A stretch of DNA of 64,000 nucleotides from a virus (lineage: Duplodnaviria; Caudoviricetes), in the IMG/VR virus record IMGVR_UViG_3300034053_000029, positions 32,001-96,000 of that record, one strand, 5' to 3'. Shown in pieces: positions 18,793 through 54,839 of this stretch. The notes under the pieces are model-generated. The model did not search any database. It was not told the DNA's origin and saw only the letters and a program-made list of their open reading frames with translations. Each line of letters begins with the position of its first letter. Positions within the stretch are counted from its first letter, which is position 1. Made by a program: the position numbers and the translations under genes.

Positions 18793-18865
18793 GATAAATA
18801 TCATGTAGCAACAAAAAATGCTAGTCACGAAGCGTCAACTTCTACTAGCCCTAGACATTCTAACA
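18793..18865 (+). promoter_or_regulatory. Late promoter plus structured leader, family A copy 1
   Basis: GATAAATA 18793-18800; GCTAGT-CAC-GAAG-CGTCAA-CTTC-T-ACTAGC-CCTAGA at 18820-18855. Confidence 0.75.
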
Positions 18866-18883
18866 TTTATCAAGGAGACAAAT

Positions 18884-19573
18884 ATGTCCAGCACTAGTAT
18901 TTATCAATTCAAACCTACATTTCTATACATCAAACAACATACCGTAACTGGTAAATTATACTTTGGTAAGACTACCAAGAATCCAGAAACATATCTTGGT
19001 AGTGGAAAATATTGGAGAAACCACATCAAGAAGCACGGAATAAAATATGTAATAAATTTGTGGTATTGTTTATTTTTAGACGAAAGCGATTGTAAGAATT
19101 TTGCATTATCTTTTTCTGAACAAAATGATATTGTTGAGTCGAGTATATGGGCAAATCTGATTAATGAGAATGTGTCTGGTGGTGGAAATATTGGAAAATT
19201 AAACGGAATGCACAAATCCAATAGAGATTACGATACCGATAAAGAAAAGAAGAGAATTAACAACATGAGAGCATCGAGAGCATTAGCATCAAAAGACCAA
19301 AATGTAAAATCATATTCTAGAGTCAAATCTGAAGAAGAACGTAAGAAGATTAGCGATAAAGCTAAACATCGATCTTTAGTAATATGTCCACATTGTGGCA
19401 AAGAATGTAATCAAATAAACGCAATTAGACATCATTTAGATAGATGCAAATCAAACCCAAATATATCAGAAGAAGATATGTTTATCAATAAGGTGACTAG
19501 AATACACGACAGAAAGTTAATGCAAATTGGTGGTTTTGCTGCTTGGATAAAGTGTAGCAAACATCTTCCTTAA
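18884..19573 (+). CDS. Seg-like GIY-YIG homing endonuclease
   Basis: FLYIKQH...LYFGKT, YLGSG; start MSSTSIY after AGGAG; antisense to neighbours. Confidence 0.85.
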   Translation: MSSTSIYQFKPTFLYIKQHTVTGKLYFGKTTKNPETYLGSGKYWRNHIKKHGIKYVINLWYCLFLDESDCKNFALSFSEQNDIVESSIWANLINENVSGGGNIGKLNGMHKSNRDYDTDKEKKRINNMRASRALASKDQNVKSYSRVKSEEERKKISDKAKHRSLVICPHCGKECNQINAIRHHLDRCKSNPNISEEDMFINKVTRIHDRKLMQIGGFAAWIKCSKHLP

Positions 19574-27825: not shown

Positions 27826-27873
27826 TATAAATAATATGTGGATCACGATGCGCTAACATCTATCCACCCTAGA
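27826..27873 (+). promoter_or_regulatory. Late promoter plus structured leader, family A copy 2
   Basis: TATAAATA 27826-27833; GTGGAT-CAC-GATG-CGCTAA-CATC-T-ATCCAC-CCTAGA at 27838-27873. Confidence 0.75.
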
Positions 27874-27900
27874 ACTTAAACTAAACATGGGAGTCCCAGC

Positions 27901-28542
27901 ATGAATATTTATGCCGAAATGATATCAACAATTGCAATTAAAAACAAATATACCAAATGGTATCTGTCGATTATTTCAAACTCAAAATATAAAGAAGGGT
28001 ATTGTGAAAAACATCATATTCTTCCAAAGTGTTTCAAACTTGGTGGAGAAAAAGACCCATCAAATATCGTCAAATTGACTGCTAAAGAGCATTTTGTTTG
28101 TCATTTGTTATTGACTAAAATGTTCTTAGACAAAAAGAAATTTCAAATGATATACGCTTGCAATCGGATGTGTTTCAAACAAACACCAAATCACAAACGA
28201 GAATATGCAGTTTCATCTTCAGTATATGCTATAGTTAAATCAGAACAATCAAAGTATATGAAAATTAACAATCACAATAAAGATGGCAGTCAATCTAAAG
28301 CAGCATGGGATGTTGCATCCGAAGAAAGACATATAAATCAATCAGCAGTTGCAACTAAAAGGAATATAGAATATTGGGCAACAAGAAAGAAACCAATATT
28401 AGATTTTATATGTGAAGTGTGTGGAATTGAGTTTACATCAAAAAAGGAAAATCGTCGTTGTTGCGGCAAATCTTGTGCAGCAAGACTCAGAAATAAAATG
28501 CGGTGGCTTGGGAAACAAGGTATGCCACCAACCCCGGTTTGA
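27901..28542 (+). CDS. HNH homing endonuclease
   Basis: EKHHILPK...NIVKLTAKEHFVCH; C-terminal CxxC...CxxxC. Confidence 0.85.
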   Translation: MNIYAEMISTIAIKNKYTKWYLSIISNSKYKEGYCEKHHILPKCFKLGGEKDPSNIVKLTAKEHFVCHLLLTKMFLDKKKFQMIYACNRMCFKQTPNHKREYAVSSSVYAIVKSEQSKYMKINNHNKDGSQSKAAWDVASEERHINQSAVATKRNIEYWATRKKPILDFICEVCGIEFTSKKENRRCCGKSCAARLRNKMRWLGKQGMPPTPV

Positions 28543-28905: not shown

Positions 28906-29760
28906 TCATGATTTAACCCAACTCGAATTAACCTTAATGAATCCACTAAATGACTTTGGCTCACGTTTCAAAAATCCATAGTCAAGTTTCATGAATCCTT
29001 TTGTCGTTGCGGTTTCTCCGGTATTCCTATCAGTATCTTTAGACACACTCATGTATGACGAATCATCATGGTCGGAATCACGGAACAATACTTGTCCATG
29101 TTTCTTGTCAATACCAAATAACATTAATGCATGATACATATGATTATCATCAGAGACAGATTTCTTTCTGAGCTTCAACGTACCATCAGATAAAAACTTA
29201 CTATTCATAATGGTTCCTGCAGTCTTTGCCATAGCAATAACAGGAACACCGGTCTTGACAACTTCCAATGCAGAATCCAAATCATCAACTTTCTCAGCAT
29301 CGATGGACAACTTCTTACCATTGATCACGACGTTCTTAGACAACCCATCGATAACCTGTTCTAGCGTCAAACCCTTCGTAGGAATTTTAGGATACCATTG
29401 ATCTGAAATAACGGATGGAGAGATACCAAGTTGCATAGCAACCGAATGGACTACCTGCAGGTACAAACAGGCATCACCCTTCGCCTTGATTTTTTTAAAT
29501 TCTTGGTGATGGAGTGCGTTCTTCAAGAACATTAGATTTTCATCGTCATGAATATGTGATGTAGTTGACTCCGAGTTTTTCTTGATCGGAATCAACTCAC
29601 CGTGCGCCTGACGATAAACTGCTTTTCCATCCTTGCCCCAACGAGCAACGTGCATATAGGTTAATCCCATATCTTTTGCACGTTCACTCGTTTCAGACTC
29701 AAGAATCTGATTCACCATTTGTTTTACTTCAGATAACGGTTTCATAGGATAATTCCACAA
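28906..29760 (-). CDS. Papain-fold (C39-like) peptidase domain protein
   Basis: DACLY (Cys), GVPVI, YHALMLFGID (His), FRDS. Confidence 0.6.
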   Translation of the reverse strand: MWNYPMKPLSEVKQMVNQILESETSERAKDMGLTYMHVARWGKDGKAVYRQAHGELIPIKKNSESTTSHIHDDENLMFLKNALHHQEFKKIKAKGDACLYLQVVHSVAMQLGISPSVISDQWYPKIPTKGLTLEQVIDGLSKNVVINGKKLSIDAEKVDDLDSALEVVKTGVPVIAMAKTAGTIMNSKFLSDGTLKLRKKSVSDDNHMYHALMLFGIDKKHGQVLFRDSDHDDSSYMSVSKDTDRNTGETATTKGFMKLDYGFLKREPKSFSGFIKVNSSWVKS

Positions 29761-30344
29761 TGTTGTTCCAAATATTTAGGTACTCTTGAATGTTTGGGTA
29801 TGAACCCTGCTACATATTCTGCTTGATCTGCTAGGATATTACGGTTAGCGAGAATCAATGCTTCATATCTATTTGGTATATAAGGAACCCAAAGTAGTTC
29901 CATGCCGACATCTTCTAAAAACATATTTCCTTTTTTACCATTACATTTTTTGCACGACGAAATGCAGTTCATCCACGAGTCCTTACCACCTTTAGAAACA
30001 GGTATGATATGGTCTCTAGTCAAATGCGACTCTGAAAAATGATGACCACAATATCCACATATTAAGAGATCACGCTTAAATAAAGATGAATTACTCAGTA
30101 CTGGAGTTTTTGCTGCTTGATGTTTGAACTTACCCTTGATACCGATTATCGTACCAATGGTCATAGACGTTCTTTCTCCGGTCATGCGAGAAGTTCCTCC
30201 CATGATCATGTCTGGATCACCTAGTTCAAACGAAATAAGATTTTTTGCTTTTGCTGTCACTGCTGTTTCCCAATGTAACCATTGGTGCGGAAGTCCATCA
30301 CTTGTTAAACCTAAAACTAAATTATGTCTCATCTCAATATCCAT
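29742..30344 (-). CDS. HNH endonuclease (McrA-like Zn/HNH)
   Basis: CGYCG...TRDHIIPVSKGG...NCISSCKKCNGKK. Confidence 0.88.
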   Translation of the reverse strand: MDIEMRHNLVLGLTSDGLPHQWLHWETAVTAKAKNLISFELGDPDMIMGGTSRMTGERTSMTIGTIIGIKGKFKHQAAKTPVLSNSSLFKRDLLICGYCGHHFSESHLTRDHIIPVSKGGKDSWMNCISSCKKCNGKKGNMFLEDVGMELLWVPYIPNRYEALILANRNILADQAEYVAGFIPKHSRVPKYLEQHCGIIL

Positions 30345-30348
30345 TTCA

Positions 30349-30428
30349 TATAAATATATAGGTTAGCTAATATCGTCACATATCAGCAACTCGCTCGGAG
30401 ACGAGCTGTCCCTATGACAATATTTATT
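30349..30428 (+). promoter_or_regulatory. Late promoter plus structured leader, family B copy 1
   Basis: TATAAATA 30349-30356; TATAGG-TTAG-hairpin-hairpin-TGTC-CCTATG. Confidence 0.65.
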
Positions 30429-30440
30429 CTCGGAGATTAT

Positions 30441-31310
30441 ATGTATAACAACCCAAGATGCTCATGTGTTCTTTGTCACTTAGAGGTGTCATCTACTGTA
30501 TTATCAAAACATATTGGCGGAAAACTGTGTCAGGAAACAGTGAAATTCCCAAACAAAAAAGTTGGATTTTGTAAATACTGTAATATTGATATATCAAATC
30601 TAAATAAAAGTGAAAAACAAAATCATGTTCAATGGTGTAGTCACAACCCAAATAAAACCACAAAAAGAAAACAAGTTTCAGAGCAATTGAATGCGTCTTG
30701 GAAAACAAATAAAGACGATAGAATCTCTAAAGTTAAATACACTAAATCAATTAGGTATGGTGATGAAAACTATAATAACCCATCAAAGAATAAGGAAACA
30801 AATATTATCAATAATGGTGGTTATTCAAACAATAGAGAACAAGCAAAAGAGACTTGCATAAACAAATATGGTGTTGATAACCCAAATAAACTAAAATGTG
30901 TCAGAGATAAAATAGAAAACACAAATTTAGAAAAATATGGTGTTAGACATTTGATGCAAGATCATAATGTTTTTGAAGAGAGGCAATCCTACAGAAAAAC
31001 AAACAAACAATTCACTTTTCCTTCTGGAAAAGTTGTGAATGTTCAAGGGTATGAGCCTTTAGTCATACAACAACTTTTAGATTCAGGGTATTCTGAAGAT
31101 CAAATTCAAGTTACAGGAAGAAAAGGATTTAAATATGTGTTTGAAGGAAAAGAACGAATTTATCATCCTGATATTATCATACCACACGAAAATCGTGTAA
31201 TCGAGGTCAAATCAAAATATTGGTATGAAAGAGAACTAAGTAAAAACCTTGCCAAACAACAAGGAACAATATCTGCAGGATTTACCCACGAATTTGTTAT
31301 CGTAAAATAG
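30441..31310 (+). CDS. Putative homing endonuclease with PD-(D/E)XK C-terminus and KYGV repeats
   Basis: N-terminal CxxC motifs, KYGVDNP/KYGV repeats, YHPDIII...IEVKS; start trimmed to ATG after GGAG. Confidence 0.75.
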   Translation: MYNNPRCSCVLCHLEVSSTVLSKHIGGKLCQETVKFPNKKVGFCKYCNIDISNLNKSEKQNHVQWCSHNPNKTTKRKQVSEQLNASWKTNKDDRISKVKYTKSIRYGDENYNNPSKNKETNIINNGGYSNNREQAKETCINKYGVDNPNKLKCVRDKIENTNLEKYGVRHLMQDHNVFEERQSYRKTNKQFTFPSGKVVNVQGYEPLVIQQLLDSGYSEDQIQVTGRKGFKYVFEGKERIYHPDIIIPHENRVIEVKSKYWYERELSKNLAKQQGTISAGFTHEFVIVK

Positions 31311-31361
31311 AACCATAATCAATCCTTTCTATTTACGGTAAAATCCTTACCGTAGTAAGGA

Positions 31362-31760
31362 TCATGTTTGTTTGTATCTCTTTTTGTAGTCGGCGTATTG
31401 AAGATCGTACCATTCAATGTGGTTCTGAAACTCTTTTATTATTTCTTCGGCAACATATTTAGCCGAGTCTTTATGCTTAACAACTGTGGCTAGTCTTCGT
31501 TTAAGAAATGAAATTAGAATTCCATGCGATTCTTTATGCGCTTCGAGATATGGATATTCAAAACTTGCCATAAACTCTTCTTCAGTTTTACAATGAATTT
31601 CAAGAACCGTTTGTAATTGAGAAATAAGAGACAATAGGATAACGTCATCCACTTCAGTATATTTCCATTTCATATTTTCTAAAATGGCAAATATTTGTAG
31701 ATGTTCTTCATCGACTTTCTCGACTCCGACTTGATAGTACTTGTAGCGTTCTTTATCCAT
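31362..31760 (-). CDS. Bacteriohemerythrin-like protein
   Basis: VDEEH, HCKTEEEFM, AHKESH, NHI...DLQY ligand pattern; late promoter 31765-31772. Confidence 0.8.
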   Translation of the reverse strand: MDKERYKYYQVGVEKVDEEHLQIFAILENMKWKYTEVDDVILLSLISQLQTVLEIHCKTEEEFMASFEYPYLEAHKESHGILISFLKRRLATVVKHKDSAKYVAEEIIKEFQNHIEWYDLQYADYKKRYKQT

Positions 31761-31923
31761 CTATTATTTATGATAATCGTCACAACTGACATCAAACATA
31801 ATAAATTCTTTGGACACTACATGACATTTACCAAAATCGTCCTTGAATACCTTAGTTACAGGTATCGTGATACAACCAGATAAAATAAGGACTACTATCA
31901 CAGTTTTCATAATTAAATCCAGT

Positions 31924-31970
31924 TGCGGAAGGATGGTAGAATCGAACTCTATGTTACATAACCTTCCGTA
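31924..31970 (-). pseudogene. tRNA remnant (acceptor stem plus T arm only)
   Basis: CGGAAGG...GAGTTCGATTCT...CCTTCCG; no D or anticodon arm. Confidence 0.55.
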
Positions 31971-32136
31971 TGTTAATCAATTTTATTAATTGCTACCACA
32001 AACAGGACGCAGAACATAATTAAATTAATCACCGCCCAAATTTCCATAGACTCTGTACCAACTCCAACTATGGTCGGTAAAGTAATGTAACCAGTCAAAA
32101 GAAATTCTGTTAAATCGTCCATTTACTATTTATGCT

Positions 32137-32167
32137 TGGAACATGAGACAGGAATCGAACCTGCTTA
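32137..32167 (-). pseudogene. 3' tRNA fragment, copy of the tRNA-Gly 3' end
   Basis: TAAGCAGGTTCGATTCCTGTCTCATGTTCCA, 29/31 identical to 36384-36414. Confidence 0.7.
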
Positions 32168-32179
32168 GAACTCAACTAT

Positions 32180-32262
32180 GATAAATATATGTGAGTTAGA
32201 TGGTTATTGGTCGTAACCATCAGCTTGAGGAAGACTACAAGTTGTCCTCACATACTATTTAT
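32180..32262 (+). promoter_or_regulatory. Late promoter plus structured leader, family B copy 2
   Basis: GATAAATA 32180-32187; TATGTGAG-TTAG-hairpin-hairpin-TGTC-CTCACATA. Confidence 0.65.
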
Positions 32263-32275
32263 TAAGGAAGACATT

Positions 32276-33088
32276 ATGAAAAATCAAACCTGCAAGCACT
32301 GCAATCAGACACTACCGAACCTTTCACCTAAGGTATTTTCTAACCACGTTAGGTGGTGTGATAAAAATCTGAATAGAAAGAAAGTAGGCCCAATTGGTAT
32401 AGCCAAAAGGGCAAAAACGATCAAACAGAATACTTTTAATAGAAAAATAATATTATGGAAAGAATATTACTTAACACCAAAAATATGTGTTGAATGTAAA
32501 AATGAAATTGATTGGTTTAGAAAAGACCAGATGTGTTGTTCTGCATCGTGTGCAGCAAAAGTTTCTAATAGAAATAAAACACCAGAACAAAAACACAAAG
32601 CAAAAAATTGTGGTAAATTGCTAGGCAGAAATAATAAAAAGGTTAAAGAACCAATTGCACCATATTCAAAAGTGTATAAGTGTACTTGTAAGGTATCTGG
32701 TATTGTTTGGTACAGTAAAACAGTAAAGCATATACACCCTAGTGTAACTGAAACTAAACAACAGTACTCATATCAATGTAGATTCAATTTCCAAATTAAA
32801 ACTTATTCTAATTGGTTTTATTATTCATCAGAGTTGATCAATCATTTTGGTTGGTATGCTGCCAAAAATAAAGGTGACAATCTAACCGGATGTTCTAGAG
32901 ATCACTTATACTCTGTAAATGACGGATTTATCAATAATGTTGATCCAAAAATAATTTCTCATCCAGCTAATTGTGAGATAAAACCACATAAACAAAATCA
33001 ATCCAAAGGCAGATCATCTTCAATAACTTTAACAGAATTGTTAGATAGAATTACAACTTTTGAAAATAAGTATGGGAGAGTGGTATGA
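32276..33088 (+). CDS. HNH-type homing endonuclease with Zn fingers
   Basis: CxxC motifs; SRDHLYS...HPANC...HKQNQSK; start trimmed to MKNQ. Confidence 0.78.
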   Translation: MKNQTCKHCNQTLPNLSPKVFSNHVRWCDKNLNRKKVGPIGIAKRAKTIKQNTFNRKIILWKEYYLTPKICVECKNEIDWFRKDQMCCSASCAAKVSNRNKTPEQKHKAKNCGKLLGRNNKKVKEPIAPYSKVYKCTCKVSGIVWYSKTVKHIHPSVTETKQQYSYQCRFNFQIKTYSNWFYYSSELINHFGWYAAKNKGDNLTGCSRDHLYSVNDGFINNVDPKIISHPANCEIKPHKQNQSKGRSSSITLTELLDRITTFENKYGRVV

Positions 33089-33147
33089 GAATCGAACTCA
33101 TTTGATTAGTTTTGCAGACTAACACCTAACCATTCGGACAACCACTC
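33074..33147 (-). tRNA. tRNA-Cys(GCA)
   Basis: GAGTGGT/ACCACTC acceptor stem, U73, loop CTGCAAA; encoded end is CCC, not CCA. Confidence 0.88.
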
Positions 33148-33188
33148 TCACATAATTACTCTAGTCATTCGGCCAACGTCATATTGTT

Positions 33189-33262
33189 TGGAAGGGGTAC
33201 TTGGAATCGAACCAAGTCTAATGCTGTCAAAGAGCATGGTGCAGCCAATACACTTTACCCCT
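33189..33262 (-). tRNA. tRNA-Gln(TTG)
   Basis: Cloverleaf, loop CTTTGAC, CCA. Confidence 0.9.
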
Positions 33263-36383: not shown

Positions 36384-36470
36384 TGGAGCAGGAGACAGGA
36401 ATCGAACCTGCTTACGGCTTTCGCCTTACTTGATTGGAAGTCAAGCGCCTAACCAATAGGCTACACCTGC
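36384..36470 (-). tRNA. tRNA-Gly(TCC) with long variable arm
   Basis: CTTGA-CTTCCAA-TCAAG, U73, extra arm GGC-GAAA-GCC, CCA. Confidence 0.85.
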
Positions 36471-37835: not shown

Positions 37836-37894
37836 GATAAATAATAATGCTAGTCACGAAGCGTCAACTTCTACTAGCCCTAGACATTCTAACA
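37836..37894 (+). promoter_or_regulatory. Late promoter plus structured leader, family A copy 3
   Basis: GATAAATA 37836-37843; 49 bp (37846-37894) identical to 18817-18865. Confidence 0.78.
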
Positions 37895-37912
37895 ACTTGA
37901 AAGGATCAAATT

Positions 37913-38743
37913 ATGTCCAGCACCAGTATTTATCCATCAACGAAGATCGTTCCTTATGTTTATAAGTTGACTCATAAAGTCACTAAACAATTTTACTTTG
38001 GTGTTAGGTTTAGTAAAAACCAAAAACTACCATCGCACATCGATTTAGGAACACATTATTTCACATCATCGAAATGCATCAAACAACTTGGTTTTGATAA
38101 CTTTGACACCGAAATCCTAGCAGAATTTCCTTTCGACGGCGGAAGAATTGATGCTTACTTACTTGAACAACAATTAATCGAAGAGAACTTCTCAAATTCA
38201 CTCATCTTGAATAAGAACATATCAAAAACCAATAAAGGTTCTTTTTACTTTTGGATGCACAAAGGATCAACTTGTCAAGCAATCTCAGATGCAAACAAAG
38301 GCAGGAAATTAAGAGATTATGATTACAAACATTCGCTAGAAAGTAAAAATAAAATTAGCGAAGGTGTTGGTCGTAAATGTTCTTGCATATTATGCAAAGT
38401 CGAACTATCATCAATTACATCACTTAAATCACACTTCAAAAGTTGTTTTGAAGATTGGGAATCGATGCAGTGTTTATTCCCAAACTTAAATCAAAAGAAA
38501 CATCTCATCAAACCAAAAAGAATTAAGTCGCCCAAAATTATAAAACAAAAGCGAATCAAAAAAGAATTTAACAACTGTTTAGAATGTCAATCTAAAGTAA
38601 ATCGTCGTTCTAAAAAGTTTTGTAATTCGTCTTGTGCAGCAAAATACAACAATAAACTAAGACCCAAAGGGCACGAATCAAGAATAAAAAGCAATGAATC
38701 GAGAATAAACAAATTAAAATCTAGGTGTGCGTCTAATCTCTAG
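37913..38743 (+). CDS. Seg-like GIY-YIG homing endonuclease
   Basis: PYVYKL...FYFGVR, YFTSS, C-terminal Zn motifs; starts MSSTSIY. Confidence 0.85.
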   Translation: MSSTSIYPSTKIVPYVYKLTHKVTKQFYFGVRFSKNQKLPSHIDLGTHYFTSSKCIKQLGFDNFDTEILAEFPFDGGRIDAYLLEQQLIEENFSNSLILNKNISKTNKGSFYFWMHKGSTCQAISDANKGRKLRDYDYKHSLESKNKISEGVGRKCSCILCKVELSSITSLKSHFKSCFEDWESMQCLFPNLNQKKHLIKPKRIKSPKIIKQKRIKKEFNNCLECQSKVNRRSKKFCNSSCAAKYNNKLRPKGHESRIKSNESRINKLKSRCASNL

Positions 38744-53980: not shown

Positions 53981-54038
53981 TATAAATATACTTGTGGATC
54001 ACGGTTCTGTCAAACCCATCCACTCTAGACATTCTACA
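53981..54038 (+). promoter_or_regulatory. Late promoter plus structured leader, family A copy 4
   Basis: TATAAATA 53981-53988; GTGGAT-CAC-GGTT-CTGTCA-AACC-C-ATCCAC-TCTAGA at 53994-54029. Confidence 0.75.
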
Positions 54039-54053
54039 TTGAAAGGAACCAAT

Positions 54054-54839
54054 ATGTCCAGCGAAACTATTTATACATCAGAAAAAATTCTCCCATACGT
54101 CTATATTTGTATCCACAAAACCACCGAAGAGTTTTATATCGGATATAGAAGTGCAAATAAAGTTCCATCTAGCGAAGATTTGGGTAAAGTATACTTTACT
54201 AGCTCGAAACGAGTAAAACCAATATTCGAAGAATTTAATTTTTACATTATAGCAGAATTTTTTGATTCTAACGATGCATATAACCACGAACAAACTTTAA
54301 TAAAAGATCATTTTAATGATGCTCTATGTATAAATCAACACTACATTTCTCCAGACAATTTTTACGGTAAATTTAATCCAGGAACAACAAAAATAAGTAG
54401 AGAAAAAGCAAAAAGTAGAATGTTGTCTGAACACAATCCTTGTTACAACCAATCAAAAGAAACTAAGAATAAATTATCTAGTATTGTTTCGCTCAGAAAT
54501 TCAAAATTAACATCGGATGAAAAGAAACTAAAGTACGGCAATTATGCCGAAACCAATGGATTCTACAAAAAGAAGCATTCAGAAGACACAATTTTGATAT
54601 TAAGAGAGAAAAACACTAGATACGAATACAAATTAATTTCACCATCAGGAGAAATTTTTACAACATTATCTCTTAAAAACTTTTGCAATGAACATAATTT
54701 AAATAGACAGAGTTTAAATAGATTTATGAATAAAGGAAAAGTACCACCAGCTAGAATTGACGCAAAAGAACAAAGAATCAACACAAGCGGGTGGGAAGTA
54801 TGCATATTAAATGAGACACCCACCCGCCATGCAAGATAG
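54054..54839 (+). CDS. Seg-like GIY-YIG homing endonuclease
   Basis: PYVYIC...FYIGYR, YFTSS; starts MSSETIY; 3' end overlaps nrdJ. Confidence 0.85.
   Translation: MSSETIYTSEKILPYVYICIHKTTEEFYIGYRSANKVPSSEDLGKVYFTSSKRVKPIFEEFNFYIIAEFFDSNDAYNHEQTLIKDHFNDALCINQHYISPDNFYGKFNPGTTKISREKAKSRMLSEHNPCYNQSKETKNKLSSIVSLRNSKLTSDEKKLKYGNYAETNGFYKKKHSEDTILILREKNTRYEYKLISPSGEIFTTLSLKNFCNEHNLNRQSLNRFMNKGKVPPARIDAKEQRINTSGWEVCILNETPTRHAR

Follow-up and report, generated by a model that had tools for sequence, protein, structure and literature searches.

What kind of element stands in front of two nuclease genes that run against nearly all of their neighbours in a phage genome, and which of its strands acts as an RNA? 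The locus lies in IMG/VR virus record IMGVR_UViG_3300034053_000029, a complete record of 210,171 bp with terminal repeats, of which bases 32001 to 96000 were analysed; this whole stretch of 64,000 nucleotides (nt) is called the window below, and positions are counted from its first letter. Its minus strand carries nearly all of the genes, together with a cluster of 15 tRNA genes, and its few plus-strand open reading frames (ORFs) encode nucleases and are each preceded by a (T/G/C)ATAAATA word. Between word and gene, two of these loci hold the same small three-way junction. The two elements belong to one widespread, apparently uncatalogued family of phage structured RNAs, members of which carry loops that match the translation start region of an adjacent nuclease gene. 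That the junction is made in the window as a minus-strand RNA that restrains the plus-strand nuclease mRNA is a proposal to which we give an even chance.

The ATAAATA-type word is the box of a T4-type late promoter, and in T4 late transcription starts about 6 nt past the box. The two copies and the words beside them are as follows (P1 to P3 are the helices, and P1′ is the closing arm of P1):

30357–30416, functional strand probably minus: copy 1 of the three-way junction (P1 30357–62 with 30411–16, UUAG 30363–66, P2 30367–86, CAA 30387–89, P3 30390–405, C-UGUC 30406–10).
32188–32254, functional strand probably minus: copy 2 of the three-way junction (P1 32188–95 with 32247–54, UUAG 32196–99, P2 32200–20, CA(G) 32221–23, P3 32223–42, UGUC 32243–46).
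30349–30356, plus strand: late-promoter word TATAAATA, abutting P1 of copy 1, with a predicted plus-strand start near 30362, where the P1 5′ arm ends.
32180–32187, plus strand: late-promoter word GATAAATA, abutting P1 of copy 2, with a predicted plus-strand start near 32193.
30421–30428, minus strand: late-promoter-like word AATAAATA, 5 nt before P1 of copy 1 and facing the plus-strand word, with a predicted start near 30415.
32256–32263, minus strand: the word AATAAATA again, 1 nt before P1 of copy 2; a start about 6 nt on would leave 4 bp of P1.

Both copies fold as P1-UUAG-P2-CA(A)-P3-(C)UGUC-P1′. Copy 1 reads TATAGG-TTAG-[CTAATAT/ATATCAG]-CAA-[CTCG/CGAG]-C-TGTC-CCTATG on the plus strand and P1-GACAG-P3-UUG-P2-CUAA-P1′ on the minus strand; the outermost pair of its P1 is U.G, its P3 can alternatively be drawn as GCUCG/CGAGC, and the one A.C mismatch of its P2 on the plus strand is a G.U pair on the minus strand. 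Copy 2 reads TATGTGAG-TTAG-[ATGGTTA/TAACCAT]-CA-[GCTTG/CAAGT]-TGTC-CTCACATA. For the single copies, minimum free energy (MFE) z-scores are −1.6 (copy 1) and −3.9 (copy 2) on the plus strand and −2.9 and −3.9 on the minus strand; these values are modest, so that the evidence for the fold is comparative rather than thermodynamic. The folding energy of copy 1 is −20.1 kcal/mol on the minus strand versus −14.6 kcal/mol on the plus strand, and copy 2, with a minus-strand fold of −18.8 kcal/mol, reaches the junction on both strands. An earlier reading of the letters alone (the original prediction) had reported these junction words (TTAG and TGTC), the three-way topology, and the sequences and coordinates of both copies, all of which were recovered on re-reading and with the covariance model described next; the late-promoter word and nuclease gene that it had placed on either side of each copy are also there, with TATAAATA and GATAAATA abutting P1 and with ATGs, each served by a Shine-Dalgarno sequence, at 30441 and 32276.

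In the whole 210-kb genome, a stem-TTAG-TGTC-stem descriptor found two convincing sites only, which are the two copies, and a covariance-model search of the genome gave no further site. The same descriptor found the first two foreign elements, which have the same junction words and different stems. We then scanned public viral and metagenome contigs for the junction words only (AGTTAGAT...ATCAA...CTGTCC[T]). Among the matches listed, at least 202 are distinct (counts for the viral and the metagenome contigs alike are lower bounds), and all three stems are present in at least 66, against 0.015 expected when the variable parts are shuffled. The original prediction, which knew two copies and made its case depend on further homologues, is thereby answered: more than 65 exist. 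In an alignment of 25 sequences, 98.4% of the cells pair (versus 61% with shuffled columns and 36 to 51% with slid partners), and both sides change in 17 of the 21 pairs. A covariance model, R1, was seeded with 24 foreign members plus copy 2, with copy 1 left out, and describes three helices joined by G|UUAG|AU...AU|CAA|P3|C-UGUC|C. Foreign members score 45 to 70 bits with R1 and copy 2, which is in the seed, scores 59.1 bits; copy 1, from outside the seed, scores 28.2 bits (expect value [E] 4e-5), and nothing else in the window exceeds 12.2 bits. Copy 1 departs from the motif in its first P2 pair (C-G for A-U), and copy 2 departs from it in CAG and U-UGUC.

Member contigs derive from lake, marine, sediment, rumen, termite, and human-gut samples. 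A second viral scan in which the P1 pair was enforced added two loci only, and the family under the strict pattern is accordingly small in IMG/VR, at roughly 50 to 60 loci. A pattern scan of 185,579 prokaryote genomes (GTDB) returned five matches, one of them real, on a contig of a Lachnospiraceae metagenome-assembled genome. We found no convincing motif in ten cultured phages (T4, KVP40, Aeh1, phiWae14, Va1, GAP32, Serratia BF, pEa_SNUABM_49, Vibrio 2.275.O, and CkP1), and an 18.7-bit R1 match inside T4 rIIA was judged to be chance. Apart from tRNAs, no Rfam 15 family reached its gathering threshold on the window or on 11 member loci; the best subthreshold match over copy 2, Parabacteroides-1, scored 17.5 bits versus a gathering score of 93.4 and was judged to be noise. 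A full-text literature search, which did not extend to the entries among the roughly 10,000 candidate phage RNAs catalogued in 2023 (PMC10690425), found no description of the motif. Searches for relatives of the window itself were likewise unproductive: a megablast of 29700–33200 against phages, which sought close relatives with empty sites, gave no match, a peptide-pattern search with gene 2 (the nuclease-like gene behind copy 2) and its hemerythrin-like neighbour gave nothing in IMG/VR, and a class II ribonucleotide reductase query gave distant phages only.

What the family does is most legible where the nuclease gene and the junction share a strand. We designate as F the strand that reads UUAG...UGUC and as R its complement, which reads GACAG...CUAA; R is the minus strand in the window. 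In class R (41 of 65 members), the nuclease gene lies downstream of the motif on the R strand, and the Shine-Dalgarno sequence or AUG of that gene has its complement in the P2 loop. Complementarity of at least 6 nt between P2 loop and start region occurs in 76% of class R, versus 8 to 12% in non-cognate and shuffled controls, the longest being 12 nt. The P3 loop, for its part, is complementary over at least 6 nt to the loop of a hairpin between motif and start region in 44% of the class (controls, 2%). These matches leave little doubt that class R has the design of a repressor acting in cis from the 5′ untranslated region (UTR) and that its functional RNA is the R strand. In four members of the class, an ATAAATA box separates the junction from the start region.

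About 9 of the 41 class R members come directly after a tRNA gene, and copy 2 adjoins a fragment of tRNA-Gly, an arrangement that would suit a self-cleaving ribozyme or a processing signal (for RNase P, Z, E, or III) that frees nuclease mRNAs from transcripts of tRNA genes or operons; the hammerhead, moreover, is likewise a small three-way junction around a conserved core. We consider this explanation highly improbable. Neither a ribozyme nor any other family of Rfam 15 matches at E up to 10, the junction strands (3 to 4, 2 to 3, and 4 to 5 nt) do not fit the hammerhead core as it is generally known, and both ARAGORN and the Rfam tRNA model pass over the element, while the loop-to-start matches would be left unexplained. 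A tRNA or tRNA-like gene was rejected as an identity for the two copies, neither of which is called by these programs and whose loop and junction geometry is unlike that of a tRNA. A tRNA-adjacent subgroup of class R (L172, L192, L199, L304, L266, and L272) has the P3 loop sequence G(C/U/A)NGCAAC (UUAG strand), with a kissing contact to a conserved hairpin loop farther downstream; it may be a distinct lineage of the cassette associated with tRNA clusters.

The window copies have the other layout. In class F, which comprises 14 members plus both window copies, the gene lies on the F strand, 18 to 37 nt past P1′, and a late-type box abuts P1. The P3 loop of these elements is identical to 7 to 11 nt of the start region in 14 of 16 (versus 4% of shuffled loops), and the identity extends to non-consensus bases and, in an unclassified locus with the same layout (L173), to the first codons. 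The window shows this in both copies:

30394–30401: word CTCGGAGA in the P3 loop of copy 1, which repeats 8 nt of the gene 1 start region exactly (8/8).
30429–30443, plus strand: gene 1 start region, consisting of CTCGGAGA (30429–436), 4 nt, and the ATG at 30441.
32228–32235: word AGGAAGAC in the P3 loop of copy 2, which repeats 8 nt of the gene 2 start region exactly (8/8).
32265–32278, plus strand: gene 2 start region, consisting of AGGAAGAC (32265–272), 3 nt, and the ATG at 32276.

Identity on F amounts to complementarity between an R-strand loop and the F-strand mRNA. The minus-strand P3 loops, UCUCCGAG in copy 1 and GUCUUCCU in copy 2, are complementary to the start regions, with computed duplexes of −15.0 kcal/mol for copy 1 (shuffles, −5.2 ± 2.1) and −13.0 kcal/mol for copy 2 (shuffles, −5.0 ± 2.2).

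Several independent lines favour R, the minus strand of the window, as the RNA that folds. With the nuclease excluded, neighbouring genes lie on the R strand at 24 of 30 class R loci and at 8 of 11 class F loci, and tRNA genes show the same R-strand pattern: it is the nuclease gene that changes direction, and the motif stays aligned with the host operon. Where P1 has non-Watson-Crick pairs, these are G.U on R in 11 cases and on F in two. At L088, a T4-type contig that encodes a homologue of window gene 2 and has T4-type boxes on both sides, P1 pairs on R only, and P2 of copy 1 is complete on the minus strand only. An R-strand ATAAATA box lies 4 to 6 nt before P1 in six class R members, in copy 1 (5 nt), and in L088 and L094 (4 nt), whereas the F-side box abuts P1 at 0 to 1 nt. 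Given the T4 spacing, the former would start an R transcript at P1; the latter would start the F mRNA inside the 5′ arm, from which the junction could not close. The minus-strand ATAAATA words at 30427 and 32262 are 2 of 21 such words on that strand of the 64-kb window, and an RNA begun at the start predicted for copy 1 folds into the junction at −20 kcal/mol.

An element that sits beside nuclease genes in either orientation might also work as DNA, as a cruciform or single-strand structure or as a protein operator for homing, recombination, replication, or promoter control, which would account for both orientations at once. Since only some 3% of the pairs are non-Watson-Crick, both strands are able to fold, and an orientation that follows the neighbouring genes could reflect the direction of replication; I-TevI, moreover, binds an operator over its own late promoter (PMC2988022). 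It is difficult, however, to see why a DNA element should have loops covarying with the Shine-Dalgarno sequence and AUG of the gene beside it, and one operator would not serve nucleases of four or more folds, such that we think a DNA-level element very unlikely.

The main rival is the one put forward in the original prediction, in which the junction serves the plus-strand nuclease mRNA as a 5′ leader and acts in cis. This could take the form of the T-even arrangement, with the late promoter inside an inhibitory structure so that read-through transcripts alone fold and are silenced, or the P3 loop could be a decoy or standby copy of the ribosome-binding site (RBS). The layout speaks for such a leader, the late-promoter words abutting P1 and the genes starting 21 to 24 nt past it, as does its fit to the scheme documented for I-TevI, segB, mobE, and gene e (PMC2988022, PMC3014915). 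When flanks are included, copy 2 (−31.8 kcal/mol, z −4.4) forms a long stem extending to the AAGG in its Shine-Dalgarno sequence, and copy 1 pairs CAUAUAA with UUAUAUG across the AUG; G.U counts over all stems of the window class also lean to the plus side, at seven versus four. Set against this is the predicted start itself: a late start about 6 nt past the word (TATAAATA in copy 1) would remove the whole P1 5′ arm of copy 1 and most of that of copy 2, so that late mRNA could not form the junction. The neighbouring genes, being on the other strand, provide no upstream same-strand transcription, which makes a same-strand read-through RNA unlikely, and pairing fails on this strand for the P1 of L088 and the P2 of copy 1. 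A decoy would need the Shine-Dalgarno consensus alone, leaving unexplained why loop identity tracks non-consensus bases and codons, and we found no sequence on this strand that is complementary to both the loop and the start region. With family-wide evidence pointing to the opposite strand as the folded RNA, the leader was not borne out as stated, and we regard it as unlikely, albeit as an explanation to be taken seriously.

Comparison with the T-even elements leads to a similar position. The hairpins that combine a late promoter with sequestration of the RBS at I-TevI, I-TevII, I-TevIII, segB, Aeh1 mobE, and gene e, and the T4 late-promoter paradigm, are documented (PMC2988022, PMC3014915), and the junction resembles them in being an RNA structure 5′ of a homing-endonuclease gene, with a late promoter (here TATAAATA) in its 5′ arm and apparent control over access to the RBS. 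The predicted late promoter does lie within the 5′ arm such that late transcripts would lack that arm, with the start taken from the T4 rule. As to the 3′ arm, P1′ ends 12 to 17 nt before the Shine-Dalgarno sequence; in the flanked folds, only weak extensions reach the start signals, namely the AAGG in copy 2 and the AUG in copy 1. Gene orientation does not point to longer early or middle transcripts on the same strand, as flanking genes lie on the opposite strand. With a P1′ that stops short of the RBS and with little prospect of read-through on the same strand, the junction probably does not belong to the T-even hairpin family. Those hairpins are simple and lineage-specific and enclose the RBS directly on the gene's own strand, whereas the junction is one conserved fold across many unrelated phages and nuclease folds, reaches the start region by loop-loop or loop-strand contacts, and in the window has apparently been selected on the opposite strand.

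We therefore return to the minus-strand RNA as the preferred reading, in which the family would be a scaffold presenting "address" loops that match the start region of the nuclease gene. The active molecule is most likely the folded RNA that reads P1-GACAG-P3-UUG-P2-CUAA-P1′. In class R, it would act in cis, with the P2 loop pairing with the Shine-Dalgarno sequence or AUG and the P3 loop often kissing the hairpin in front, and translation would be held down; in the four members that have a box between motif and start region, late transcripts would escape, as in the T-even scheme. In the window, where the nuclease genes are inverted relative to the junction and the surrounding minus-strand genes, the junction would be made as a minus-strand RNA from the facing AATAAATA word, from a read-through operon transcript, or from both. 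Acting in trans, its P3 loop would bind the plus-strand nuclease mRNA at the start region, just beyond the overlap of the two RNAs, and the rest of the junction RNA would be antisense to the first 55 nt or so of that mRNA, with the net effect of limiting synthesis of a potentially toxic nuclease.

Antisense control encoded in cis is familiar for selfish genes, as in RNA-OUT/RNA-IN of IS10/Tn10 and in hok/sok. Like RNA-OUT, the proposed RNA would be short, stably folded, transcribed from a promoter facing that of the selfish gene, overlapping the 5′ end of its mRNA, and blocking its translation start. Facing words are present on the minus strand (AATAAATA at 30428–30421 and 32263–32256, promoters as predicted by sequence), and the computed folds and duplexes give a stably folded antisense RNA complementary to the start region. 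It differs from RNA-OUT in that the overlap stops short of the start region, which is matched by a separate P3 loop, and in being a conserved three-way junction, not a single stem-loop, the same fold of which is a cis 5′ UTR in most relatives. Millard and colleagues are said to have reported in 2010 that an antisense RNA of cyanophage S-PM2, CfrI, links psbA to a homing-endonuclease gene; it is reportedly a longer transcript that covers the endonuclease gene and the psbA junction. The antisense transcript predicted here would likewise be tied to a homing-endonuclease gene in a T4-like phage, and we know of no conserved three-way junction or programmable loops described for CfrI.

A number of observations weigh against a minus-strand RNA. 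The consensus folding energy is alike on both strands (RNAalifold, −17.6 versus −16.8 kcal/mol). In class F, the G.U pairs summed over all stems (seven versus four) favour the F (UUAG) strand over R, although most of them lie near loops or in related sequences, and the closing pair of P3 in copy 2 is a G.U on the plus strand. An RNA of copy 2 that started from the minus-strand box, 1 nt from P1, would lose the junction, leaving only a read-through RNA to form it; a read-through RNA, however, is already a perfect antisense of the start region, and the additional loop copy is redundant unless a short RNA arises by transcription or processing. For the P2 loops of the two copies, no significant target was found in the nuclease mRNAs. 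The minus-strand transcript and its promoter words are predictions, and it is from these and the family pattern that we infer the transcribed strand, promoter activity, and repression.

The minus-strand model also does not account for the invariant junction bases. Some 12 junction nucleotides and the closing pairs are invariant while the stems vary freely, but the pattern by which members were collected fixed most of the junction words, and this invariance is partly a product of the search, from which the window copies and L194 deviate (CAG, UUGUC). An explanation that is compatible with a minus-strand RNA would make the junction (UUAG/CAA/CUGUC or its complement) a pocket for a small molecule or for a protein of phage or host, with riboswitch-like or protein-dependent control over the docking of the loops on the start region. 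The element has the size and information content of small aptamers and ribozymes, and the pairing of loop to start region resembles an expression platform; the analysis yielded no ligand, pocket model, or protein partner, though, and autoregulation by the nucleases is improbable given the unrelated folds of those that adjoin the motif. We rate a pocket as doubtful. Its further-reaching version, also doubtful and slightly more so, would make the junction a sensor, with an aptamer that binds a metabolite or some factor of phage or host, and the family a riboswitch-like class for selfish nuclease genes, with exchangeable address loops that work as a cis 5′ UTR or as a trans antisense RNA, that is, a portable, programmable translational regulator spreading with homing endonucleases.

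Homing endonucleases have to stay nearly silent if the phage that carries them is to be spared. To our knowledge, the controls described so far are lineage-specific hairpins in T-even phages. The kind of control that we propose, restriction of the translation start of a selfish nuclease, is a known one; new are the conserved junction, its rewritable loops, and the duality of cis and trans action, for which we infer the function. The RNA module is common to dozens of unrelated uncultured phages from freshwater, marine, gut, rumen, and sediment sources, with loops rewritten to the start signal of each gene, in a cis and apparently also in a trans (antisense) configuration. If the model is true, the module would be a new RNA family for Rfam, a natural, modular, re-addressable translational repressor of interest to RNA engineering, and a marker by which free-standing homing-endonuclease cassettes could be annotated and delimited in phage genomes from metagenomes. 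That the motif keeps the operon orientation while the nuclease flips also makes it testable whether restraint is carried by the selfish gene or imposed by the phage backbone.

The nuclease genes around the two copies are the following:

30441–31310, plus strand: nuclease gene 1, 289 amino acids (aa), DUF7487 (PF24308, E 1e-40), with a PD-(D/E)XK-like HPD...EVK motif.
32276–33088, plus strand: nuclease-like gene 2, 270 aa, PHROG 23051, with a C-terminal RDH...N...H motif; its 3′ end overlaps a tRNA-Cys gene on the minus strand.
29742–30344, minus strand: HNH endonuclease gene (HNH_5, E 2.5e-15), starting 12 nt after copy 1 on the minus strand.

Genes 1 and 2 start 24 and 21 nt past P1′, within the range of about 20 to 120 nt used to define the motif. 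The original prediction had called them PD-(D/E)XK and HNH genes, and of these assignments the first stands better than the second. Gene 1 matches endonuclease and homing-endonuclease families of PHROG, and its HPD...EVK motif, together with a relative annotated as an HJR family nuclease, supports a PD-(D/E)XK-type fold. Neither Pfam nor PDB gave a match for gene 2; its RDH...N...H motif and neighbours in a protein atlas that lean toward HNH, at lead-level scores, make an HNH nuclease plausible but unproven. Among 51 proteins adjacent to the motif, 13 have NUMOD3, 12 DUF7487, 5 GIY-YIG, 4 the SegE GIY-YIG model, 3 DUF559/MTES_1575, 3 HNH, 1 HNH_3, and 1 a His-Me zinc loop. The motif thus accompanies free-standing homing-endonuclease genes of at least four catalytic folds, and the idea that the structured element and the nuclease form a portable cassette, also raised in the original prediction, holds. 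A link specific to DUF7487 was rejected, as the motif is present at only 3 of 79 DUF7487 loci.

As the HNH gene starts 12 nt beyond copy 1 on the minus strand, copy 1 lies between two divergent nuclease genes. The 5′ arm and part of the loop of its P3 (CUCGUCUC, minus strand, 30398–30405) can pair over 8 bp with GAGAUGAG (30332–30344), which spans the second in-frame AUG of the HNH gene; the duplex has −12.0 kcal/mol, a value reached by 1 of 100 shuffles. One P3 loop region might address two nuclease genes, or this pairing might be chance.

Near copy 2, the minus strand contains a 31-nt stretch (32137–32167), just downstream of the copy on that strand, that matches the T-arm, acceptor 3′ strand, and CCA of the window tRNA-Gly (36384–36470) at 29 of 31 positions; nuclease-driven gene conversion in the tRNA cluster probably left it behind as a scar. 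Another tRNA-like piece, a weaker one, is found at 31903–31962. In the cultured jumbo phages GAP32 (L331), Serratia BF (L332), and pEa_SNUABM_49 (L333), homologues of gene 2 are located antisense inside tRNA clusters, with 3′ ends that overlap or abut a tRNA-Met gene, and none has the junction motif.

The same genome holds another kind of nuclease-associated element, termed family A in the original prediction, at 18794–18900, 27826–27905, 37837–37925, and 53981–54060 (plus strand): four seg-type nuclease genes behind (T/G)ATAAATA and a covarying hairpin (GCTAGT..ACTAGC or GTGGAT..ATCCAC), then CCTAGA(C/A). These are hairpins with a different sequence, not the UUAG/CAA/CUGUC junction. Finally, the nuclease ORFs at L011/L180, L142, L147, and L151 are broken by TGA or TAG (in L011, by a TGA eight codons in), which suggests recoded stop codons in these phages.

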